Source: a virus
Virus genome (UHGV): UHGV-0039965
Reading direction: 5' to 3' (one strand)
DNA length: 16,182 nucleotides
Shown: positions 5,067-16,182 of the stretch, in pieces
Position numbering within the stretch: position 1 is the stretch's first letter
Layout of the letters: each line of letters opens with the position of its first letter
Translations under genes and position numbers: made by a program
The notes under the pieces: generated by a model
Databases searched by the model: none
What the model was told of the DNA's origin: nothing
Seen by the model: only the letters and a program-made list of their open reading frames with translations

Positions 5067-6569
5067 TCAGGCTGCTTCTTTAAAAAGGGAGGCCAGTGCT
5101 TCAACTGTATAGTCATTATTAATGCGGTACATTAACGTAATTGTTTGTGCCGGAGATTTCGGACCAAAATCAACATTAATATAAAGATTACCCGCAGCCA
5201 GGCTTTCTTTTGTATTCAGCTCACTGTCTAACCACGCACGCCCTCCGTTAATCGCACCCTGCTCCTCTAATTTGTGCAGATATGCGTTTATCGACTCGAC
5301 AACGTCTGTTCCGAGGTGCAGGTCTATCGGACGAACAATAAAATCGGTCATCATTGCCCGGGCTATAGAATCCTCAATTACGTCAGCTGTTCGACGAACG
5401 CTCTCGAAAGACCATTGCGGGCTGAGGCTGCACAAATAGTTACCCCAGTGTCTGAACCCGTCATAGCGAATAATCGTGCTGACCTGGCTGGCATTCAGCA
5501 GGTTCGCTGTGCAGTTTGTCTCACCAATAATAAAATCGTCGACTTGTTCAAGCCCTGTAACTCCGTAGATATTCTGGTTCGATTTACTCCACCAGAATCC
5601 TTTTTCATTATCAATTCGGGCTCGTAAACCAGCAGCGATAGCTGAATACGGACGAGATAACCCACTGACATCACTCGTAGAATAAACGCGAGGTCGCAAC
5701 AACTCAGCGCGTCCGCCGAGTTTTTGCCTGCGATTCACAACGTCTGCAGGGGTAGCAGCGCGCGGAGAGTCGATATAACACACTCCCCGGAGTTTATTTG
5801 CAACCACTTCAAGCTGAGCCGCTATTTCGTCTCGTGCGCTGTAATCCGGCGCTATAATAATTCGCGGGGTAACTTCGTTAATTTGCGCTGACGTCAAAAG
5901 CGAATTAATTCCGGCGATAACATTTTCGCTCATATCAGCGTCGTCGCTACTCTCTACAACGCGAACAACAACGATTAATGCATCAGTCTGATTTAAAATA
6001 TCAGAAATAGCGGGGGGCAGAGTCCCGTATTTCCCGAGCAGGGCGGCTTTCTTCTGACTACCTGCAATTAATACAGGAGAATTAATCGGGAATGCGTCAT
6101 CTGTTCCACCTGATAAATTTGTTGGTGGAAGACCAAATACTGTACCGGTTCCGGAATGCTCGCCACCAAAAGTTACATTAATCCACTCTCCGTCTGTTTT
6201 CCCCTCTCTATATTCCTGATTCTGATCATACATTTTGCCGGGGGTCATTCCCGGCTCCGTAATCATCGTTAATTTTTTTGTTCCGTCGGGCAGCGTGCTA
6301 TATCCTGGAGTGCAGGTTGCGCCCTCAACTGTCATATCTACAATTTCAACAACCCATTTATTCCCGTCGCTGCCCGGTGATACAGTTGAAAACTCAACGA
6401 GATTATCAGCCAGCGATGAGCCCCACGTTAATGATGCTCTCGTAGCCTCCGCGACGTTCGTCGCAGTACCAACAATCCCAATCACGGAAATATCTACTGT
6501 GTTGATCTCTTTTGTGCCGTCGTCGTATTCGAGCGTGCGAATACCGTGCAAAAAATTAGTTACGCTCAT
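5067..6569 (-). CDS. Contractile tail sheath protein (P2 FI-like)
   Basis: 500-aa ORF. The segment LRARIDNEKGFWWSKSNQNIYGVTGL ... STIIRYDGFRHWGN ... AGNLYINVDFGP matches the conserved sheath core as I recall it for FI-type proteins. Its start ATG overlaps the stop of the upstream -1 frame (ATGA). Confidence 0.9.
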   Translation of the reverse strand: MSVTNFLHGIRTLEYDDGTKEINTVDISVIGIVGTATNVAEATRASLTWGSSLADNLVEFSTVSPGSDGNKWVVEIVDMTVEGATCTPGYSTLPDGTKKLTMITEPGMTPGKMYDQNQEYREGKTDGEWINVTFGGEHSGTGTVFGLPPTNLSGGTDDAFPINSPVLIAGSQKKAALLGKYGTLPPAISDILNQTDALIVVVRVVESSDDADMSENVIAGINSLLTSAQINEVTPRIIIAPDYSARDEIAAQLEVVANKLRGVCYIDSPRAATPADVVNRRQKLGGRAELLRPRVYSTSDVSGLSRPYSAIAAGLRARIDNEKGFWWSKSNQNIYGVTGLEQVDDFIIGETNCTANLLNASQVSTIIRYDGFRHWGNYLCSLSPQWSFESVRRTADVIEDSIARAMMTDFIVRPIDLHLGTDVVESINAYLHKLEEQGAINGGRAWLDSELNTKESLAAGNLYINVDFGPKSPAQTITLMYRINNDYTVEALASLFKEAA

Positions 6570-6954
6570 TTTATTCCTTCTCTATTTTCACCAATTCGCG
6601 TCGCTATTGCTTCTTTAAGCTCGGCCAAGTTTTCGATTTGCGCGTCAGATGCGGTTCCGGCATCTACTGCACACTGAATTGAGAATGCCTCAATTGACAG
6701 ATCGCCAACAGTCCGTAATGTAGTCTGGAGTTTTTGCGTCTGCTCTTTTTTACAAATTTAGAAATGCTCCCATAATCCCCGCTCAGCGCTCTTTCATATA
6801 AAACCCTACCGTGTTCCTCGCAATCATTTTTCATTGCGGTGAATGGAATGTCGTTTCCAATCCCGTCAATATCGCAAATAATATTTATAGATAACCCATG
6901 CTCGTCATTAAAAACAGGGTTTGTTATTTTTCTAAATGAATCAACACTTATCAT
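6566..6954 (-). CDS. Full-length frameshift product (~131 aa) of the fibre-chaperone-like gene
   Basis: A -1 shift at the heptamer enters a frame open for 59 codons (EQTQKLQTTLRTVGDLSIEAFSIQCAVDAGTASDAQIENLAELKEAIATRIGENREGIK). That frame has no ATG or GTG of its own and ends in a TGA overlapping the sheath ATG. Confidence 0.45.
6664..6954 (-). CDS. Fibre-chaperone-like protein, 0-frame product (96 aa) of a gene carrying a -1 frameshift site
   Basis: ORF starting in a TAATG overlap with the tail-fibre stop. The first ~72 aa look protein-like; the last ~26 aa after the A-run (SRRKNSRLHYGLLAICQLRHSQFSVQ) look like out-of-frame sequence. Confidence 0.55.
   Translation of the reverse strand: MISVDSFRKITNPVFNDEHGLSINIICDIDGIGNDIPFTAMKNDCEEHGRVLYERALSGDYGSISKFVKKSRRKNSRLHYGLLAICQLRHSQFSVQ
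6745..6751 (-). other. Canonical -1 slippery heptamer A_AAA_AAG (recoding signal or homopolymer frameshift hotspot)
   Basis: Minus-strand sequence GGGAGCATTTCTAAATTTGTA AAA AAG AGC: the 0-frame codons are GTA AAA AAG, so the heptamer is in the correct register, with a Shine-Dalgarno-like GGGAG 15 nt upstream. This resembles the E. coli dnaX frameshift cassette. Confidence 0.5.
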
Positions 6955-8165
6955 TACGCAATCCTAATAGCTAAAAAACAGGCAGTCCCAATATCACCGA
7001 CCCCGCCTGGTGAATACGCCATAGCTCGCCATGAGCCAACAAGGGGTGTGTCATAAAATGGTTTTGTGGCAATATCCGTGTTATATGAACCGGTATTATT
7101 TATACTAGCGTAATATAAATCACCTCCAGCCCATATGGAGCCCGGTAGTATTTGTGGTGCATGATTAATAGCGACAAGCGCATAAGTATTAACCGCGCCA
7201 ACAACACCTATTTCCGGTGATGGGTCCGGTGAAAGACTTATATCTATGTTGCCATTTTCATCCGGCGACTCCCCGTTAATCGTTTTAACCGGTTTAAGAT
7301 TAGCCTCATTCCAGTATTTATACGTCATTCCGCCACACAGTAATACCAGGCCATCATAGTGAACTCCGCGTAATCTATAAAAAACCTTCTGATTGTTTTC
7401 TCCACGGGTCGAAAAATCTAAATAATCGCCCGACACATCTGATAAACCAGCAAGTGAAAACAACGTCAAATCAGTGCCCGGTTTGTTTATATTTATTTGT
7501 TTTTTAGAGGATAAAACGTCTTCAAAAATCACATCATCTTTAAAAGTATTTGGATGAGTAAATGCATTACCCTTATCTCTATATGCAACGTCCCCATCTA
7601 TACCAATATTTTTCCGCGCAGCCTGCTGAGCAGTTTCACCATTTGCGGGAATTTCAGATAAGTTTTTACTTATCTGCAAATATTTTTTGTCAGCTTCCTC
7701 GGGAGTTACGTAGTTGTCATATACTACAACATTAACCGTAGATGTGCTGGACACCGCGAGTGTGTATTTATACGTGATTGAAATCAGCGCACCGTTGCTG
7801 TCCGTAGGTTTTAAAATGTCCGGCGAGCGCGCCACAGAGTACAGCTCGCCTTTATCTGTTAATATCCCCACCTCACGGATAGTATAGCCCCCAGTGTCTG
7901 GCGGTACGTAAAGTGTAAAGATAACCTGGTTACCGCTATTTTCTGCGGATTTAATATCCCCACGATACGTCTCGTGAATTAATGCAGTTCGTGCCGGGTC
8001 CGGTGTTACGTCGTCGTTTCCGTTTGCGTCGCCAATAACGAATTTATTCAGCACCACGGGTACACCCGATGCCAGCGCAGCGGCTTCAAGTTGCGCCCCC
8101 CGGTCTGTCAGTACCGCATAAACCTGGCTCGCGCTCGCTTTCAGATTTGATTTTAATTTAGCCAT
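6954..8165 (-). CDS. Tail fibre protein (P2 gpH-like N-terminal domain)
   Basis: 403-aa ORF; N-terminus ...VIGDANGNDDVTPDPARTALIHETYRGDI...YTIREVGILTDKGELYSVA follows the conserved N-terminal domain pattern of P2-type fibres, with a Ser/Thr/Asn/Gly-rich variable C-terminal part. It follows gpI with an 8-nt overlap. Confidence 0.8.
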   Translation of the reverse strand: MAKLKSNLKASASQVYAVLTDRGAQLEAAALASGVPVVLNKFVIGDANGNDDVTPDPARTALIHETYRGDIKSAENSGNQVIFTLYVPPDTGGYTIREVGILTDKGELYSVARSPDILKPTDSNGALISITYKYTLAVSSTSTVNVVVYDNYVTPEEADKKYLQISKNLSEIPANGETAQQAARKNIGIDGDVAYRDKGNAFTHPNTFKDDVIFEDVLSSKKQININKPGTDLTLFSLAGLSDVSGDYLDFSTRGENNQKVFYRLRGVHYDGLVLLCGGMTYKYWNEANLKPVKTINGESPDENGNIDISLSPDPSPEIGVVGAVNTYALVAINHAPQILPGSIWAGGDLYYASINNTGSYNTDIATKPFYDTPLVGSWRAMAYSPGGVGDIGTACFLAIRIA

Positions 8166-8784
8166 TAGGTCCTATCTCCACTAACAAACTCACAATTGGC
8201 GAGCCTGATATATATAGCCCGCCGTTAATTTTTACACCGCCGTCGCCGTCTGCTGGGATATTTACGCCTATTTTCGCGTAAGGCGCACCAGCTATAAAAA
8301 ATTCACCATCGACACCCGTTTCAAAATTTATTTCTTTTAATAAGGAACGGCAATTTTTTGCATCAAATATTTGTGCAATAAAGGTATTCAATAGTTCTAA
8401 ATCTAACCCTATACTTTTTAGCAGATATATTTTAATTGCGAATGTATACGGGTCGTCCCTGGGCGTGGCTTCAAACCACTCTCTCATTTTGCTCTCAAAT
8501 CCCACCGTTAATAATGCTCGTTCGACGGCACCACGCGTGCCGCGATGTTTATTTTGCCAGGCTGCGGCCTTAATAATTTCGCGTTTTTGCTGCTCGCTCC
8601 AGTCGGGGTTCCAGTAGGTGACCGCGTACTCCCACGCCAGCCACGGCAACAGATTTGCAGGGCACAAATCGGGATTTTTAATAATTCGAATATCGCCAGG
8701 CAGATCGCCGACGTGAGATAAAACAACCTCAAGCGCCCTCTCAGGGGTTATTGCGTTCGGAGGCAGTACGCTTTGACTTGTCAT
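8158..8784 (-). CDS. Baseplate protein I (P2 gpI-like)
   Basis: 208-aa ORF; the motif NPDLCPANLLPWLAWEYAV closely matches the gpI signature as I recall it (NPDTCPANLLPWLAWAFSV). Confidence 0.9.
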   Translation of the reverse strand: MTSQSVLPPNAITPERALEVVLSHVGDLPGDIRIIKNPDLCPANLLPWLAWEYAVTYWNPDWSEQQKREIIKAAAWQNKHRGTRGAVERALLTVGFESKMREWFEATPRDDPYTFAIKIYLLKSIGLDLELLNTFIAQIFDAKNCRSLLKEINFETGVDGEFFIAGAPYAKIGVNIPADGDGGVKINGGLYISGSPIVSLLVEIGPNG

Positions 8785-8786
8785 GG

Positions 8787-9707
8787 CTACCCCATTTGCA
8801 CGCTGAGTTTGATTTCTGTGCAGTACGGAGCCTGTCCGACGCCAGCAATCACATCCTCTGTTGGCGATATCAGAATCACACGCTCCGTTCCGTCACGATG
8901 TATCGCGTCGTAAATTCCTGACAGGGCTGCTGTCGCCCCGATTTTATGTTGTGTAGCCACGTATATAGCTAAATCGCTTTGAGCACCGTTGAGCAACACG
9001 TTCTGATCGGGACCGAGCCCCGCTACGATAACGGCTTCAACCCGGTAATTCAGGTTCGACGCAGGTTTTACAGTCACGAAATCAGTCAGCGGTCGAGTAT
9101 CGTCAGGAGACAGGGCCGCATTCACTGTATTCAGTAGTGATTGAGGCGGAGTGCCGTCGCCGGTTCGCGACAAAACATACATATCGACGTATCCAGGCTG
9201 GGTCACCGGCGGGCCGTACGCCTGAGCTGACAGAACGTCGGGATCACTCGACAGCGCGAAATAGTTATAGGCGTTCGTACTGCCGGCAGTATTCCGCGCG
9301 TACCATGATAGCTGTATGCGATGACGATACTCGTCGTCACTCTCGTAAACCCCCTCAGTCGGAGGAATTGCGTCAGGATTAGCTGGCGTTATCAACAGCC
9401 GCAGGCAGTCAAAATTAGCGCCGATCTGGTCGAGGTCACTCCCTTTTGCAAACGCGAGCAATACAGCGAGCATCCCCTGATTTACCCGAGCTGTAATAAT
9501 GATTTCTCTGTATGCAACTATTTCCAGCAGTTTAACGGCCGGGTCTGACTCCAGGAGTGCGTTAAATTGTGGATATAATATCTGCAATTCTGACAGTAGA
9601 CTGGATTTAACATCTGAAAATAATGGGGTTTTAACGAATGCTGGCGGCGGCAGCAGACTCATATCAATAGTTTTCACTATCGAATTCTGAACTGTTGATG
9701 TTATCAA
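8787..9707 (-). CDS. Baseplate protein J (P2 gpJ-like)
   Basis: 306-aa ORF between the W-like and I-like genes; size and position fit gpJ. Its start overlaps the W stop (ATGA). Confidence 0.85.
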   Translation of the reverse strand: MITSTVQNSIVKTIDMSLLPPPAFVKTPLFSDVKSSLLSELQILYPQFNALLESDPAVKLLEIVAYREIIITARVNQGMLAVLLAFAKGSDLDQIGANFDCLRLLITPANPDAIPPTEGVYESDDEYRHRIQLSWYARNTAGSTNAYNYFALSSDPDVLSAQAYGPPVTQPGYVDMYVLSRTGDGTPPQSLLNTVNAALSPDDTRPLTDFVTVKPASNLNYRVEAVIVAGLGPDQNVLLNGAQSDLAIYVATQHKIGATAALSGIYDAIHRDGTERVILISPTEDVIAGVGQAPYCTEIKLSVQMG

Positions 9708-10045
9708 AATATCAGTTCCATATTATTAAACTCTAATCGCTGTTGTGTTTCGATATCTGTTGCGATAATTAATATTGTTATTTTCCCGATGTCCACTGCT
9801 AACACATTTATTCTGTCAATTCTGACGCGTGGTTCCCAGCGTGCTATTGCTCCTGCACTTTCCATTATTATTCTCATAGCAAGCGACGGATCAGTGGGAT
9901 TATCAACGAGGTCAAATAATTTGCTGCCGTATTCCGGCAACATTACACGGGTTCCCAGCGGGGTCGTTAAAATATCAACGATAGACTGACAAATGTGATC
10001 AGTCCCCGATAAAGGCTTACCGGTGTTACGGTCCATTCCAAGCAT
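9704..10045 (-). CDS. Baseplate protein W (gpW/gp25-like)
   Basis: ORF between V and J. I place the start at the ATG at 10043-10045 (MLGMDRNTGKPLSGTDHICQSIVDIL..., 113 aa), 3 nt after the V stop. The longest ORF runs to 10093 but would overlap V by 46 nt. Confidence 0.8.
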   Translation of the reverse strand: MLGMDRNTGKPLSGTDHICQSIVDILTTPLGTRVMLPEYGSKLFDLVDNPTDPSLAMRIIMESAGAIARWEPRVRIDRINVLAVDIGKITILIIATDIETQQRLEFNNMELIF

Positions 10046-10047
10046 AT

Positions 10048-10950
10048 TTACGCCATTGGTTGGTTCGGTTGTTGTGTTTCCCCGTCCGGACATATATGAG
10101 TGTGTCCGTTGTACGTTGTGCGGACCTCAGTCATTGTGCCTTGTCGGTCCTGCACCTCTTGCCCTGCTAACACACTACCGCGAGTTGTGATATTACCTGT
10201 TCCACCGTTATCTCCAGTGACAGAAATATCGTTACGGAATGTCGCTAATTTATCTACTACTAATGTCTCGGTAATATGCGTTGGACCAGCTAGTGTTATA
10301 CCACCCGGAGCCCACGCGCTGATTGTTTGAGCTGTCAGCGATATTCTGTTCGCAGCAGTAACACTAACAGAACTCGTTGCTATAACGTTCACTAAATCAG
10401 CATGTGCGTTAATTGTATCTGTCGCTGTGACATTAATAATATCAGCGTCTGCGTTAATTAATTTCCCACCATGGATATTAACTACATTTTCGCTATTAAT
10501 AGTAACATCTGCGCGTCCAAATATTTCTATTTCAGACTCACCGAGTATTTTTACCACGCCGTCCGGTACGCCCTGCCATGTCAGAGTGTGATTTTTTGTG
10601 TTATACGTCATCGTAGCCCCGTCACAGTATGCAGTGACATGATCATGGGGGTCATTGCTTGACGGAGCTTTGTCGTCAATGTGCAGCCCGAGCATAACTA
10701 CACCGTTCCGCGTATCCCCACCCTCAGAAACAACAGTAACGGGATCGCCCACTGATGGTGCGCTCCAGTCGACGCGTTCTGAGGTGGCGTGAGTAAACCA
10801 CTGCAGCCAGCCTGACTGGTGTTCGCCACCAAATGAGACTCGGCAGCGTGGAGGATTCATTTTAACTGCAGCTATCGTGCCGCGTTTAACTGCGTCACGC
10901 AGCCTGCGCGCGTTCTCCGCTGCAGCATATTCATCGTCCGATTGGGCCAT
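10048..10950 (-). CDS. Baseplate spike protein V (P2 gpV-like)
   Basis: 300 aa from the ATG at 10948-10950 (MAQSDDEY...), which has GAGGG 9-10 nt upstream. C-terminal ...YNGHTHICPDG carries the HxH motif typical of the metal-binding spike apex. The ORF track begins 5 codons earlier at 10965. Confidence 0.8.
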   Translation of the reverse strand: MAQSDDEYAAAENARRLRDAVKRGTIAAVKMNPPRCRVSFGGEHQSGWLQWFTHATSERVDWSAPSVGDPVTVVSEGGDTRNGVVMLGLHIDDKAPSSNDPHDHVTAYCDGATMTYNTKNHTLTWQGVPDGVVKILGESEIEIFGRADVTINSENVVNIHGGKLINADADIINVTATDTINAHADLVNVIATSSVSVTAANRISLTAQTISAWAPGGITLAGPTHITETLVVDKLATFRNDISVTGDNGGTGNITTRGSVLAGQEVQDRQGTMTEVRTTYNGHTHICPDGETQQPNQPMA

Positions 10951-11467
10951 AATAGTCGCCCTCATGTTCTGCGCCGATATCTGGTGCTATTCCGACGTAT
11001 ATATTTTTCAGGGTCCCCTGTGAGGGATAATCGAAAATATCTGGACCAACGCCTACAACCTGCGTGAACGACACGCACTGAACTGAATGCGAACCGACTG
11101 ACTGCCCGTTTTTAATCCAGTCGCACGGTTCCGCGTCGCTGAATTTTGCCGGTTTAGTTCCGGGACCGAACATTCGCCCATTGATCCAGCTCGTCATATA
11201 GAGCGCTGCATTCTGCGATTTCAGTCCGTACTGATCAGCTGCAAATTCACGCAGCAAATACAAATTACACGACAGCTCGACTGACTGAATTGAGCCTGGA
11301 ACCGATTCGTCACTCTGTGACCAGTTGCTGATTTCCAGGAACAGAGCTGGCGTTTCAAATCCAGCCGGAATTTCCGGATAAATTCCGAATGTTTTGATGA
11401 ACGGTATTTGTAAAACCGCGCCTTTAACGCGATCAAGATATTCGTCAAATGCATCCAGTCCGCTCAT
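10931..11467 (-). CDS. Tail-module protein of unknown identity, in the position of the P2 tail completion proteins (R/S)
   Basis: 178-aa ORF translationally coupled to the upstream ORF (ATGA overlap) and overlapping the V start. Assignment is by position only. Confidence 0.5.
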   Translation of the reverse strand: MSGLDAFDEYLDRVKGAVLQIPFIKTFGIYPEIPAGFETPALFLEISNWSQSDESVPGSIQSVELSCNLYLLREFAADQYGLKSQNAALYMTSWINGRMFGPGTKPAKFSDAEPCDWIKNGQSVGSHSVQCVSFTQVVGVGPDIFDYPSQGTLKNIYVGIAPDIGAEHEGDYYGPIGR

Positions 11468-11766
11468 AATCGTTTACCTGTTTTTGGGTCTACGTGGACA
11501 TTACCTTTCACGCGACCGCGCAAATCTTTCTCAAAAAAGCCCATAAAAACAGGGCCAATGTTTTCAAAAATATAATCATCGATAGCATCCTCCAGCGCGT
11601 CGTGCACAGGTACGCGAGCCTCTTCGATTCCTCCGCGATCCAGTCGAATCCAGACACTTTTCGCACCGTAGCGTTTCGCTACGAATGAATCGGGCCAACT
11701 CATCATCGCCAGCCCTGCACTTTTGGGTGTAAAAGTTGCCCCTCTAGCGCCTTTTTTGGTTTTCAA
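11464..11766 (-). pseudogene. Possible 5'-truncated remnant of a tail-module gene
   Basis: The track's 100-aa ORF begins at a TTG. The frame stays open about 40 codons further upstream with no ATG or GTG; the first ATGs are internal (MMSWPD...). It sits at the edge of a 336-bp non-coding gap. Confidence 0.4.
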
Positions 11767-12102
11767 AAACAGGCCGGTCTCAAGATCGCGAGGCTGTTTT
11801 TGCCTCCGTGGATTTTGTAATCGCCCCTTTAGCTCAGATACCCGGAAATCATTCAGACCGTACCAGAGCTTGGCGCTGCTCAGGTCCGTGGTAACTCCAG
11901 TTTATCGCCAAACATGTCCTTTCCCTCCGGGAAACCAATGATATTGACGATATTACACCCACAACGATTCGTTTTACGTCACTCCGCAATCACCATACAT
12001 ACGTACCAATCCGTACATTCCCACCACAAAAATGGCATTCGGCGGGCACTGGTAATGGATTTTTAACGTGTGCTATTGCCTTGCGACGTATTTTCAACTC
12101 AC

Positions 12103-12327
12103 TCATACAGCCTCCCTGCTCTCAAATGGGCGAATATTGGTTGGTTCTCCACACGGAATAGCCCAACCCAGCCAGGTAAATATTTTCAGGTCACACATCG
12201 CGTCATACCGTTCGCCAGGATTCACATCCACCATGCTGCAGGCAATTTCATATTGTTCACCATTATCAGTCAGTGCGATCTGGTCATTAATAAACCGGGG
12301 CACAAATGCCAGAAAAAGTTCTTTCAT
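12103..12327 (-). CDS. Hypothetical small protein (74 aa)
   Basis: Last gene of a four-gene run with overlapping stop/start codons. No family recognised. Confidence 0.4.
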   Translation of the reverse strand: MKELFLAFVPRFINDQIALTDNGEQYEIACSMVDVNPGERYDAMCDLKIFTWLGWAIPCGEPTNIRPFESREAV

Positions 12328-12635
12328 GAAATCCTCCGCTCAAAATAAACATACTGATTCACCGCACCGATCGACATTTCGAGTTTTTCCGCGATATCCT
12401 GGCGATTAATACCCGACTGATGTAATTCCCTTGCCAGCTCGATATCCTCCTGGCGGTATTTCACTGACTGGTGATAATTACCCCGCAGATACATACAGAT
12501 TTTCAACTCGCGCGCTTTTGTGCGTACCGCAGCACCGGTTCTTCCAATAAGCTGCCCTATACGTTCAACTATCATGCTGCCCGCACATTGTTTGATGATT
12601 ACGACTTCCGCACGCACCCACCGTTTGTATTTCAT
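12324..12635 (-). CDS. Small putative DNA-binding protein with two helix-turn-helix-like segments
   Basis: 103 aa; segments IVERIGQLIGRTGAAVRTKAREL and INRQDIAEKLEMSIGAVNQYV look like HTH motifs. Coupled by ATGA overlaps to both neighbours. A regulatory role is inferred, not demonstrated. Confidence 0.45.
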   Translation of the reverse strand: MKYKRWVRAEVVIIKQCAGSMIVERIGQLIGRTGAAVRTKARELKICMYLRGNYHQSVKYRQEDIELARELHQSGINRQDIAEKLEMSIGAVNQYVYFERRIS

Positions 12636-12868
12636 TGCTCCATCCCCCCTCTCCAGTAGTTCAGACGCTCTCTGAAAAATTCCCGGTACGTATCCGGCGT
12701 CATTCCGATTTGCTCAATCACGCTTCCCCTCGGAATACGTTTCTCAAAGAGTTGGCGGATCAGCGTCGCCGCTCGCATGTCGTAGTGCTCTTTAAGCAGG
12801 TATTCCTGAGGCCATTTGGCGCGGTTGTGTGGTAAGCCGGGCGGCAGGTAATCTGATTGCCCTGCCAT
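12632..12868 (-). CDS. Hypothetical small protein (78 aa)
   Basis: ORF coupled to both neighbours; basic and aromatic-rich. No family recognised. Confidence 0.4.
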   Translation of the reverse strand: MAGQSDYLPPGLPHNRAKWPQEYLLKEHYDMRAATLIRQLFEKRIPRGSVIEQIGMTPDTYREFFRERLNYWRGGMEQ

Positions 12869-12869
12869 A

Positions 12870-13280
12870 TCACGTCCCTTTCTTTGCTATCGGAGTGATG
12901 GAACTCAGCAGCAGGCGACAGCGACCGGGCGCGCCAATGCGCTGTCCGGTTATCTTGTCGTAAGTTTCATGCGGTGAGGCACACCAGGTTGTCGCTGTTT
13001 CGTGGAGTTTCACTTGCCGCTCACCATTTCTGCGAATCGCGATCCCGATGTGCGTTTTACCCTTACATTTCACTGCTGGCGCTGCGGCTACGGATGCCTG
13101 ACGGGCAGGCTGAGCTGGTGTTGAAAAATTGCCTGCTTTGGGTCTTGGTACAAAAACCGCACGAGTGCGCGCACGTGGCCCGGCGTTCATATTCCACAAA
13201 ATGACGTCGAGATAGTTTTTACCGTCGTCTATGTGTCCTTTGTCCGACGGGTACTCTAATTTGCCTGAAATGGTGGTCAT
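12870..13280 (-). CDS. Hypothetical protein (136 aa) downstream of the helicase
   Basis: ORF 38 bp downstream of the helicase stop, same strand. It occupies the position of lambdoid nin-region genes. No family recognised. Confidence 0.45.
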   Translation of the reverse strand: MTTISGKLEYPSDKGHIDDGKNYLDVILWNMNAGPRARTRAVFVPRPKAGNFSTPAQPARQASVAAAPAVKCKGKTHIGIAIRRNGERQVKLHETATTWCASPHETYDKITGQRIGAPGRCRLLLSSITPIAKKGT

Positions 13281-13318
13281 TGGTCTTTCCTCGGTTATTT
13301 CACGCTGGTCATGCGTGG

Positions 13319-14710
13319 TTAAAATGGGTCCGTATTAAAGTTTTTGTTTGAATACCGTTTTTCACGTTTTCTCGGTTGCTCTGCCTCCTTCTGGATGCGT
13401 AATTTTTCGCGTGCTACGTGTTGATCAACTGGCAGGAAATGCCCATTCCGGAATTCCTGATAAATAATTTCACCTGCCCCGCCAGAACGGTTTTTACCGA
13501 TAATCACCTCGGCGATACCCTTTGCAGGTGAATCAGGTGTGTAAACTTCATCGCGGTACAAAAACAAAATGCTGTCAGCGTCCTGCTCAACACTGCCGGA
13601 ATCGCGCAGGTCCGACATCACCGGGCGACGCTGGCCAGCAGGTCGAGAATCCACCTGGCGGGAAAGCTGGCTAAGAGCAAAAACAGGGGTATGCAGACGC
13701 ATGGCCATAGTCTTCATGTTGCGGGAGATATGCCCGACAGCGAGATCGTGGCGCTCGGCCTTCGGTTTTTTGATCAGGCCCATGTAATCAACACCAATCA
13801 ACTTCAGGTGCGGATAACGGCGTTTATGAGTCTCTGCAATGGCGCGGATCTGCTCAATCGTCAAATCAGTGGCATCAACAATCCAGATATCGCGATCCTG
13901 CATGATTGCAAGCGCGGCGGTTAATCTGGTCAAATCCTCATCGTCCATTTCTTTTGGATTACGCAGACGCGACGTGGACATATTCCCAGCCCCGGCAACG
14001 GTACGTTCAACAATCTGCTGAGCGCCCATTTCCATGCTGAAAAACAGTGCGCCGCCGCCATCTGCGGTAACGCCATCGATAATCTTCAGGGTAAATTCCG
14101 TTTTCCCCATGCCTGGACGACCGGCAACCACAACAAGGTCGGTCATGTTGATACCGCCCAGGGCGACATCCAGATCCTCGACTCCGGTTTTCAGCATCAT
14201 TTCCTGCGCGTCGCCAGACATCCGTTTATCAACGGTGTCAATGTAGAGCGGTAACAGCTCTTTGATGTGTACCGGCTGGACTGTGCCGGTAGCGGCGCTC
14301 ATATCCAGCACCTGAGCAACATGAGATTCAATAACCTCATCACGCTGACTCTGGTTTACAGCGTTACGGATACCATCCGCGCCAGATTGCAACAATGCCG
14401 CCATTTTGCGGCTCCGCCATGCCCGCACCATTTTCCCGGCATAGCCTTTCAGATTCGGTACCGTTGCCGGGATCCGGGATATTTGAGACAGATCCGCAAG
14501 GCTGGAACCGCCCAGCGCTTCGCTGATAAACAACATGTCGATCATGCCGTTCGCCAGTGCCTGCTTTTTGATTTCGCTGAAAGCGCGACGGTGAAACACG
14601 ATGCTGAAGGCTTCCTCCGGAGTAGTGGCAATCACATCAAACGCGTCAGGCGTCGCGCCACCGTTAATCAGACCAGCGAGAACGATCGCTTCCAGTTCTT
14701 CTGGATTCAT
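13319..14710 (-). CDS. Replicative DNA helicase, DnaB family (phage-type)
   Basis: 463 aa with Walker A GRPGMGKT, Walker B-like IWIVDATD, and C-terminal DnaB-like motifs (SQLSRQVDSR, DLRDSGSVEQDADSI, VIIGKNRSGGAGEI). Start is coupled to the upstream ORF stop. Confidence 0.9.
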   Translation of the reverse strand: MNPEELEAIVLAGLINGGATPDAFDVIATTPEEAFSIVFHRRAFSEIKKQALANGMIDMLFISEALGGSSLADLSQISRIPATVPNLKGYAGKMVRAWRSRKMAALLQSGADGIRNAVNQSQRDEVIESHVAQVLDMSAATGTVQPVHIKELLPLYIDTVDKRMSGDAQEMMLKTGVEDLDVALGGINMTDLVVVAGRPGMGKTEFTLKIIDGVTADGGGALFFSMEMGAQQIVERTVAGAGNMSTSRLRNPKEMDDEDLTRLTAALAIMQDRDIWIVDATDLTIEQIRAIAETHKRRYPHLKLIGVDYMGLIKKPKAERHDLAVGHISRNMKTMAMRLHTPVFALSQLSRQVDSRPAGQRRPVMSDLRDSGSVEQDADSILFLYRDEVYTPDSPAKGIAEVIIGKNRSGGAGEIIYQEFRNGHFLPVDQHVAREKLRIQKEAEQPRKREKRYSNKNFNTDPF

Positions 14711-15183
14711 AATGCCCCTTCCCTGGTTTTACGCAGTGTTTCTGGCTTCATCAGGTAATCAAACCCTGCCCGCCAGCCGGTGCGATATTCGCCGCCGAAA
14801 TAGAAGTCTGGGGCGTTATCGCGGAATTTTTCGAAGTAGCCGATAAATGCGCCAAGAGTTTGCGTGCGCATATGTGCCAGCAGGCGCAGGATTGCCCGAC
14901 GGCGGTCAGTATCAATTTCAGCTATAGGTAGCAGGTCGCCCAGAATCTCGTTGTAGCCCTTCACAACTTCAGCAGGGTCAACGGCAGCCTCAGCAGTGGC
15001 CCACGTCTCAGCGTCAGCCAGGTATCCGTCAAACCGGTTTACGCGGCAAATGTTCGCAGGTTTCGGAACGCTTCCGCTACGACGGCGCCATGTCGCAATA
15101 ACCCAACGAATTACTAACTGAATCTCAGCCACGCTGTACCTATGTGAAATGCACCACACCATGAAAGTGAGAGTCTGGTACAT
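14707..15183 (-). pseudogene. C-terminal remnant of a phage replication initiator (O-like) gene
   Basis: Only about 130-145 aa of plausible protein, ending in a helicase-coupled C-terminal region (...FYFGGEYRTGWRAGFDYLMKPETLRKTREGAL). No N-terminal DNA-binding domain. The first ~12 codons of the track ORF are antisense to the plus-strand ORF at 15149 and probably not real. Confidence 0.55.
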
Positions 15184-15598
15184 ATTGAATGGGGTGCGCG
15201 GCGAGTCTGCGGCTTACGGTTGCACTCCGTACATCTACGATACTAGACATGGACCAACAAGCGACGGCGAAGCGCCGAAGAAATCCTGGACGGATGCTGT
15301 TAAGAAAGCGCTATCCCCTCTCGGATTCAGCGCCGATATTTTCATGGGCCTGTACGACAATCCGGAATACCGCCAGAGGAATAAAGCTGAGTTTGATATC
15401 AAGAATGCCAGCGAGAATGCGGAAGATGCTACCCGTCTTCGTAAGGAACTGGATGAGAAGCTGATCAACGTTGCCAATACGCTGGCCGCCGCGGTAACCA
15501 CCAACGAAGTAAACAAGGTATTTGGCCTCATCGCCCGCGAAGTGGATGTACACCGAAAAGCAGCAGAAGCCAAAGGCGATAAAGAATATTCATCGTAA
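15149..15598 (+). pseudogene. N-terminally truncated Rad52/Erf-family single-strand annealing protein
   Basis: Contains the Rad52-superfamily signature KKSWTDAVKKALSPLGFSADIFMGLYD, preceded by VRVWYILNGVRGESAAYG (compare FVRV...DVGYG in Rad52), but starts too close to this motif for a complete N-terminal domain. Transcribed divergently from the O-like remnant. Confidence 0.5.
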
Positions 15599-15878
15599 AT
15601 TGAAAACTGCTAAAAACACATTTACTGATGCACAGGGGGCTATCCGGGTAATTATCGATAGCAAAGATAAGATCCCGGACGAGTATGAAGGCGTGTCACT
15701 TGTTGAAGTAGAAACGGTTATTACACCAAACAAGCGAGCCATTAAAGAAGTGATTGAATCTGCGGAGGCGGTTGCCGCAGAAATAATGGCGCGTGGAGAA
15801 ACACCACCTGCCGAATTACTTAACCCGGTACCAGGCGCACATCTGGAACGCGGCGAACGTTCGCTGAGGGTACGCTAA
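15546..15878 (+). CDS. Hypothetical protein (~110 aa from the ATG at 15546)
   Basis: The track ORF begins at a TTG at 15522; the first ATG is at 15546. It is in the +1 frame relative to the Erf-like ORF and overlaps its 3' end. Acidic and Ala-rich. Could be a separate gene or a frameshifted continuation. Confidence 0.4.
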   Translation: MYTEKQQKPKAIKNIHRKLKTAKNTFTDAQGAIRVIIDSKDKIPDEYEGVSLVEVETVITPNKRAIKEVIESAEAVAAEIMARGETPPAELLNPVPGAHLERGERSLRVR

Positions 15879-16132
15879 TGCTTAAACTCACATTAAAGCG
15901 TGGTGACGCGGTTCACCTGGTACTTGCCGATGGTACCAATGGCATTATTGAAGCACGGAGCCGCTGCGAACTTGGGCTACACCTGCCAGAAAACATTAAG
16001 GTCACGCGGGAGAAATCGGCATTCCCCCCACCAGAACTGATTACGCCTAAGGCAGCCTGGAAGAGAAGCAAGCAATTTCCGGGCATAAGAACCCACGACA
16101 GACAGCAGCATATGACCGAAAAGTTAAAGTAG
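15878..16132 (+). CDS. Small protein (84 aa) with CsrA-like N-terminal pattern
   Basis: Start overlaps the upstream stop (TAATG). In an ungapped comparison with E. coli CsrA, MLKLTLKRGD...ELGLHLPENIKVTREK matches MLILTRRVGE...RIGVNAPKEVSVHREE at M1, L2, L4, T5, G9, G33, P37, V42, R44 and E45. Compared by eye only. Confidence 0.35.
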   Translation: MLKLTLKRGDAVHLVLADGTNGIIEARSRCELGLHLPENIKVTREKSAFPPPELITPKAAWKRSKQFPGIRTHDRQQHMTEKLK

Positions 16133-16182
16133 TGCCCGTAGTTGGTGGCCAGAGAAAATGAATGATGATGCGTCCAGAGAAA

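Follow-up and report, generated by a model that had tools for sequence, protein, structure and literature searches.

A deletion scar between replication and recombination gene remnants in an eroding lambdoid prophage of Escherichia coli

Introduction

Towards the right-hand end of the 16,182-nucleotide stretch of viral DNA analysed here (hereafter, the window), two open reading frames stand head to head and run into each other: a 158-aa frame on the minus strand (14707–15183) and a 149-aa frame on the plus strand (15149–15598), facing apart and sharing 35 bp (15149–15183). A preliminary description of this DNA read the pair as an O-like replication gene and an Erf/Rad52-like recombination gene, both cut back to their C-terminal, promoter-distal parts, and proposed that a single deletion had removed the immunity and early regulatory region between them. 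Here we ask whether one deletion accounts for this arrangement, what DNA was lost with it, and in what state it left the helicase gene next door.

Lambdoid prophages of E. coli that have become cryptic or defective include Rac, Qin, DLP12 and e14 in K-12, as well as the pool of defective prophages in O157. In these, as in the element described below, an integrated temperate phage has been inactivated by internal deletions that cut genes short and take out modules for regulation, replication, integration and morphogenesis, and the remnant genes are annotated as pseudogenes. Unlike them, however, the present element is very young—its DNA is 99.9–100% identical to that of an apparently complete relative—which allows each deletion endpoint to be placed to the base. 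A further difference is that its lineage displays nested deletions that can be followed from one sister strain to another.

Results

Comparison with an intact relative points to a 5,085-bp deletion

To judge from its sequence, the window is filled by a defective, myovirus-type lambdoid prophage of E. coli at the leuZ tRNA/yecA locus. An intact relative resides in strain Z0117EC0036 (NZ_CP098214.1; this locus is referred to as L003, and its coordinates are given as such), where a prophage of ~43.5 kb lies between the tRNA-Leu gene leuZ and yecA, and where the shared DNA is 99.9–100% identical to the window. Strains 22KM0354, 21KM1392 and MEI3O-23 harbour the intact prophage too. Read in the orientation of the window, the minus strand of L003 carries, in this order, the tail module, the head module, terminase, lysis genes, Q, accessory genes, four small genes, a dnaB-type helicase gene, a gene for a 354-aa initiator, a 74-aa gene, a YdaT-family gene, and cro. 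The plus strand continues with a 135-aa helix-turn-helix (HTH) repressor gene, a 106-aa gene, a 738-aa gene, gp157, a 60-aa gene, a DUF4224 gene, and the integrase gene. Both sets diverge from the cro/repressor intergenic region, which is the transcriptional layout that the preliminary description had presumed for the ancestor. This ancestor is a temperate phage with a lambda-like organisation of its early region and a contractile tail, integrated at leuZ next to yecA; its contractile-tail structural module distinguishes the element from phages with a lambda-type tail.

Aligned to L003 by blastn, the window falls into five colinear blocks of 99.94–100% identity that are separated by four gaps, here designated D1 to D4 (Table 1). 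Apart from these gaps, only five substitutions and two single-base indels—seven differences in 16 kb—distinguish it from the intact phage. The two head-to-head frames meet at D2, whose junction lies within the interval (15100–15250) originally singled out. On one side, window positions 11885–15138 correspond to L003 14123–10871, and on the other, window positions 15136–15597 correspond to L003 5788–5327, with L003 10871 joined to L003 5788 at the breakpoint. The element is thus almost certainly a defective prophage in which the loss of 5,085 bp at 15136–15138 joined the middle of repO to the leading large gene of the leftward recombination operon, a 738-aa gene, at three quarters of its length. 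This explanation is founded on a base-for-base comparison with a full-length relative and not on a statistical pattern, and nothing that we found speaks against the deletion itself. As had been proposed, a single gap with its endpoints inside both genes accounts for the fusion.

Table 1 Deletion junctions and features around the D2 scar. Positions refer to the window.
Feature	Position	Strand	Extent	Shared bases at junction	Evidence
Deletion D1	11885–11886		20,326 bp	TC	blastn and three-way alignment
Deletion D2	15136–15138		5,085 bp	GTA (found at either end in the intact prophage)	blastn and three-way alignment
Deletion D3	15596–15597		370 bp	TA	blastn and three-way alignment
Deletion D4	16049–16050		1,357 bp	AA	blastn and three-way alignment
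DnaB-type replicative helicase gene, intact	13319–14710	minus	463 aa		RefSeq WP_021560865.1 in identical DNA; Pfam DnaB, DnaB_C
RepO (lambda O-like) remnant	14710–15138	minus	codons 212–354 of 354		143/143 identity to full-length protein
Junction-created codons extending the RepO remnant frame to an ATG	15139–15183	minus	fifteen codons (MYQTLTFMVWCISHR)		
Remnant of the 738-aa recombination protein	15137–15595	plus	codons 558–710		149/149 identity to aa 562–710
Siphovirus Gp157-family remnant	15597–15878	plus	codons 97–189 of 189		full-length protein: Pfam Sipho_Gp157, E 3.5e-28
Small hypothetical gene (60 aa in intact phage)	15878–16050	plus	last codons and stop lost		
Prophage integrase C-terminal remnant	16051–16161	plus			RefSeq pseudogene at equivalent position; blastn block

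The polarity of this comparison could in principle be reversed, with the short form being the original and the long form the product of a 5-kb module insertion, or the junction could be an assembly artefact; no support for either was found. When window positions 13300–16182 were compared by megablast with 5,426 complete E. coli genomes, 502 had a match, three of them over the whole query. The other genomes among the matches listed cover query positions 1–1839 only and end at window position 15138, such that the left flank is matched only up to the breakpoint in about 500 of the 5,426 genomes. In about 500 genomes, the two proteins of which these frames are fragments are encoded in full and without interruption, and PHROG profiles span these full-length proteins from end to end; an inserted module would have had to complete two half genes, each in its own reading frame. 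As for an artefact, the D2 junction is identical in four independently sequenced genomes from four countries and recurs in many other assemblies. We consequently give these two readings next to no credence and retain the deletion.

Gene fragments on either side of the scar

On the minus strand, the RepO remnant is missing the N-terminal 211 codons of the full-length gene, and its stop codon and the start codon of the helicase gene overlap (ATGA, 14707–14710). The fifteen codons that lead its frame up to an ATG were created by the junction: they run antisense through the Rad52-like remnant, and the corresponding residues 1–15 are without counterpart in full-length RepO. On the plus strand, the native frame of the 738-aa gene resumes at 15137 (codon 558), with 557 codons missing upstream and the first in-frame ATG at 15149. 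Both genes are hence truncated, as had been claimed, and what remains of each is 100% identical to the corresponding part of the full-length protein. The plus-strand remnant, however, is not the C-terminal piece it was taken for, but an internal one (aa 558–710 of 738), as D3 takes the final 28 codons of the 738-aa gene, along with codons 1–96 of gp157, and creates the TAA stop at 15596–15598 that closes the frame.

Further downstream, D4 deletes the whole DUF4224 gene and leaves no more of the tyrosine integrase gene than approximately its final 37 codons. The truncated 60-aa gene in front of it now reads out of frame into the integrase remnant, giving rise to an 84-aa open reading frame (15878–16132).

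The overlap of the head-to-head frames proved real. Yet it is a by-product of the junction, set by chance stops and ATGs around the scar, and has no biological meaning. In identical DNA of strain CEA601S, RefSeq records a pseudogene 'replication protein RepO, missing N-terminus' and, for the plus-strand fragment, a pseudogene 'hypothetical protein' lacking both its N- and C-terminus; next come the Gp157-family remnant and an integrase remnant 'missing N-terminus', likewise as pseudogenes. We infer that the RepO and Rad52-like remnants are non-functional.

The lost segment carried the immunity region and a putative replication origin

The gene content of the 5,085-bp segment was established from the RefSeq annotation of L003 combined with Pfam and PHROG scans. 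Starting from the repO side, the deletion took codons 1–211 of this gene (the DNA-binding half, including iterons inside the gene), the 74-aa gene, a YdaT_toxin/'CII-like activator' gene, cro (Pfam P22_Cro, E 7e-20), the 74-bp cro–repressor intergenic region, and the cI-like repressor gene (HTH_3, E 1.4e-14). Beyond these, ~950 bp without annotated genes, the 106-aa gene, and codons 1–557 of the 738-aa gene are missing. Read by eye, the intergenic region holds a TTGACA and an operator-like inverted repeat (AACTTTCGTTAG / CTAACAAAAGTT), a motif that occurs nowhere in the window. The immunity region is thus gone, in keeping with the preliminary description: the HTH_3 repressor, P22_Cro and YdaT/CII-like genes all lie in the L003 interval and are absent from the window, and no repressor, operator or promoter-like site turned up in or near the interval (window 14600–16182 for the promoter scan, the whole window for the operator motif).

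The assignment of the minus-strand fragment as O-like likewise held up. Full-length RepO, which carries this name in RefSeq, matches PHROG 428 (replication initiation protein) with an E value of 5e-73 over aa 4–353, and it also matches PHROG 345 and several PHROGs termed 'replication initiation O-like', while Pfam and NCBIfam returned no match at default thresholds. Within repO, at L003 10576–10674, we located four to five iterons (AGGTCAAnnTGACCCA) spaced 22–23 bp apart, the array comprising four copies of a 16-nt core within five units of 22–23 bp. In phage lambda, the iterons of the origin sit within gene O and the helicase-delivery gene follows next. The intact relative resembles lambda in having a two-domain initiator with 4–5 iterons mid-gene, whose gene directly precedes the next replication gene and is translationally coupled to it, and in transcribing this module from the cro side of the immunity region. 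It differs in that the downstream gene encodes a phage DnaB-type helicase instead of a lambda P-type loader, and the window differs further in retaining merely the C-terminal 143 residues of the initiator, with the iterons gone. By analogy, the iterons within repO may constitute a lambda-like origin. As they lie in the D2 span, and as the iteron motif occurs nowhere in the window, the putative replication origin would have been lost as well—a consequence that goes beyond the preliminary description, as does the finding that D2 is one of four deletions in the window. With these losses, the element should no longer be able to be repressed, induced, or replicated, and the scar, together with its neighbours, marks an element that would lack the capacity for induction, replication, or excision.

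A Rad52-like domain is predicted in the 738-aa protein

The parent of the plus-strand remnant (L003 5242–7458) goes by the database names 'exonuclease' (PHROG 2489), 'phage-associated endonuclease', and 'hypothetical'. At default thresholds, neither Pfam nor NCBIfam yielded anything of use for the 738-aa protein, and a phmmer search against PDB sequences produced noise only, with no solved nuclease structure matched. The exonuclease VIII model of NCBIfam (877 positions, cut-off 1,269 bits) aligns weakly, at 47 bits, and to residues 231–336 only, through its positions 260–370; this stretch is the middle of the model and not its nuclease domain. An identity as RecE (exonuclease VIII) was therefore rejected, as the protein fails both on the C-terminal nuclease domain and on an equivalog-level score. 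Given that no nuclease domain was detected anywhere in the 738 residues, the exonuclease and endonuclease names may be wrong.

The C-terminal part, in turn, points to the Rad52 superfamily. Under relaxed Pfam settings, Rad52_Rad22 (PF04098) was the sole match, both for the C-terminal 285 residues and for the window remnant, albeit below threshold (E 0.03–0.06; 13.6–14.5 bits versus a gathering cut-off of 20.3); the Erf family gave no Pfam match to the C-terminal domain or to the remnant even at E values up to 10. A protein search recovered this part on its own, as a protein of ~242 aa, from many Pseudomonas genomes, phages, and prophages, and an alignment with such stand-alone homologues revealed an invariant block, GEAPKKSLTDAxKKALSxLGFSADVFLG, which we take to recall the Rad52 signature helix. 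For structure prediction we turned to a stand-alone enterobacterial homologue (P0010) that is 61% identical to the L003 domain and 64% identical to the window remnant. Its AlphaFold2 model (mean pLDDT 88.9) was compared with the PDB by Foldseek, in which the top seven matches were all the N-terminal domain of human RAD52 (E 2.5e-6 to 7.8e-6, probability 1.00), with the next match at an E value of 0.05.

These predictions support, at the level of the Rad52 superfamily, a Rad52 N-terminal-domain fold for the C-terminal domain of the 738-aa protein, which shares with human RAD52 both the predicted fold and a helix motif resembling the Rad52 signature. Of the Erf/Rad52-like label, the Rad52 half therefore stands at fold level and the Erf half does not. 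Nor is the parent a short Erf protein, as had been supposed: the 738-aa protein appears to be a fusion protein in which a long N-terminal region precedes a C-terminal Rad52-fold annealing domain. Genes of the type of Sak (lactococcal phage ul36) and Erf (P22) often adjoin a Gp157-family gene, and the 738-aa gene does so too. Unlike these phage members of the superfamily, it lacks an Erf Pfam match and stays below threshold for Rad52_Rad22, and its predicted domain is fused, in enterobacterial prophages, behind an N-terminal region of ~450 residues that in part bears a weak resemblance to the middle, non-nuclease portion of RecE. The window retains merely an incomplete piece of the domain together with part of a helical tail. 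According to the alignment, the remnant starts ~100 residues into the Rad52-like domain and lacks its first helices and strands, and no activity is therefore to be expected. Recognition of a Rad52-fold domain would improve the annotation of the 738-aa protein, which belongs to a widespread prophage family.

Four microhomology junctions and a suggested order of erosion

At the D2 breakpoints, the three-way alignment uncovered no longer similarity, IS element, or att-like repeat, and a deletion mediated by an IS element or the integrase was rejected on these grounds. Because the breakpoints share GTA alone, D2 would most likely have arisen by illegitimate, microhomology-mediated recombination, through either replication slippage or end joining, and not by a site-specific or IS-mediated event. 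A microhomology of 3 bp is short and, taken alone, compatible with chance. Yet all four junctions share 2–3 bp; by our own calculation, a random join shares at least 2 bp with a probability of ~0.16, so that four out of four would be expected at ~6e-4. This favours illegitimate recombination at microhomologies as the general process that would be eroding the element.

Such erosion extends well beyond the immunity region. D1 takes out the accessory genes, Q, the holin and lysis genes, the terminase, portal, S49 protease and capsid genes, and the head-completion genes, fusing the middle of a 226-aa gene of the head–tail region to DNA just beyond a 74-aa early gene. The tail cluster, otherwise intact-looking, is also decaying: a 1-bp deletion at window position 6752 (L003 39583) frameshifts a 129-aa minus-strand gene (approximately 6664–7050) that sits between the tail-fibre and tail-sheath genes. 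With four microhomology deletions and a tail frameshift, the whole element is eroding.

We next consider how the deleted form is distributed. D3 and D4 are both present in six of the 5,426 complete E. coli genomes: CEA601S (France), AHB18 (UK), GmF046 (USA), 19AR1724 (New Zealand), 23AR1217, and 24AR0180. D2 was read in the first four of these, and in these four loci the D2, D3 and D4 junctions are identical. No genome among the 5,426 was found with only some of D2–D4. The 149-aa remnant frame, which requires both D2 and D3, is listed in 158 blocks of public assemblies, which makes the deleted form common in one successful clone or more. The D1 junction, by contrast, occurs in no complete E. 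coli genome, but is found in a metagenome scaffold (ENA ERZ28598258) that matches window positions 5149–16182 at 100%. In place of D1, GmF046, AHB18 and CEA601S lack L003 14242–30772, compared with 14124–34447 in the window, and 19AR1724 lacks L003 11591–35353, including most of the helicase gene. Because these left-side deletions are nested and lineage-specific, they suggest that D2–D4 came first and that further erosion on the left side followed later and independently.

Repeated loss of this kind bears on D2 itself, whose 5,085-bp gap might have built up through at least two smaller deletions, one after the other, in the same interval. The element has undergone at least four separate deletions, and the nested, growing gaps of the sister lineages (14242–30772, 14124–34447, and 11591–35353) demonstrate that repeated deletion at one place does happen in it. 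Yet a partial gap is found in none of the 5,426 complete assemblies, and the D2 junction is clean, with one 3-bp microhomology and neither filler nor leftover fragments, which makes a stepwise origin rather unlikely.

At the other extreme, D2, D3 and D4 might have formed together in one complex break-and-rejoin event, for instance by faulty repair after an abortive induction or excision. They co-occur in the four complete genomes inspected and in all contigs read, they all use 2–3 bp of microhomology, and they fall within 8 kb that include the integrase gene and the immunity region; if true, this would represent a bacterial, prophage-scale analogue of clustered complex rearrangement. Co-occurrence, however, is equally expected from one clone that inherited sequential events, and the carriers share identical flanking proteins. 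Moreover, the islands of about 460 and 455 bp between the three deletions keep their original order and orientation, without inversions, filler DNA, or reshuffled fragments, and D1 and the lineage-specific deletions attest that independent deletions are frequent here. We regard such a joint event as quite improbable and view D2 as probably a single deletion within a series.

Taken as such a series, the locus represents ordinary prophage decay, with the remnants already recorded as pseudogenes in RefSeq and in line with a known pattern—one reportedly covered in the prophage decay literature, for instance by Casjens in 2003 and by Bobay, Touchon and Rocha in 2014. Its value is accordingly modest: thanks to the near-identical relative, it provides a clean example of decay with four junctions readable to the base, and the nested, growing deletions in sister strains represent ordered steps of erosion within one clone. 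Beyond annotation, the scar matters little.

An intact helicase gene left stranded

The deletion also accounts for a complete helicase gene standing alone beside two gene fragments. This gene is undamaged and does not differ from its counterpart in the complete phage, yet it is left without an intact initiator, an origin, and the cro-side promoter region, consistent with the earlier claim that it had lost its initiator and native promoter: codons 1–211 of RepO and the cro-side region both fall in the D2 gap. A consensus scan found no sigma-70-like site on either strand of window 14600–16182; as a simple consensus was used, the helicase gene could still be expressed to some extent from a promoter that is weak or not of the sigma-70 type, or by antisense read-through. 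The only strongly transcribed neighbour in the direction of the helicase gene is the glyW–cysT–leuZ tRNA operon. Read-through from this operon is unlikely, as a strong terminator-like hairpin with a 9-bp stem follows leuZ. With neither initiator, origin, nor recognisable promoter, the helicase gene is probably silent.

One could nonetheless imagine that the remnant has been kept because it is useful, with the helicase, the C-terminal domain of RepO, or the tail cluster domesticated—the last in a tailocin-like manner. The helicase gene and the four small genes downstream of it are intact and identical to those of the functional phage, as are most tail genes intact, and the loss of the integrase gene, the adjoining DUF4224 gene and the immunity genes would immobilise the element; on such an account, the deletion would lock it in place and remove toxic early genes. 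However, the helicase operon lacks a promoter-like site, and the deletions have taken Q, the lysis genes and the whole of the late regulatory DNA. In addition, the gene between tail fibre and sheath is frameshifted, and the sister lineage of 19AR1724 has lost most of its helicase gene, which argues against selection to keep it. With near-zero divergence from the intact phage, genes may be intact simply because they are young. Tailocin-like domestication in particular was judged unlikely in view of the lost late regulation and lysis, the tail-region frameshift, and the helicase loss in the sister lineage, and we hold domestication of any of these parts to be very improbable, the preferred reading remaining that of a decaying prophage.

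Additional variation among carrier strains

The carriers differ from one another in several further respects. AHB18 shows an additional IS1-associated loss in its baseplate genes. In CEA601S, a second prophage, P2/186-like as its gene names suggest, adjoins the integrase remnant (9154–14883 of the CEA601S locus, L001), and in the other carriers leuZ lies directly beside the integrase remnant, without a second prophage. Finally, in GmF046-type strains (L006 13449–13636), the S49 head-protease gene encodes 435 aa versus 369 aa in the intact reference. It contains ~190 bp of extra DNA, and the matches on either side of this site share 10 bp, which looks like a local duplication or insertion.
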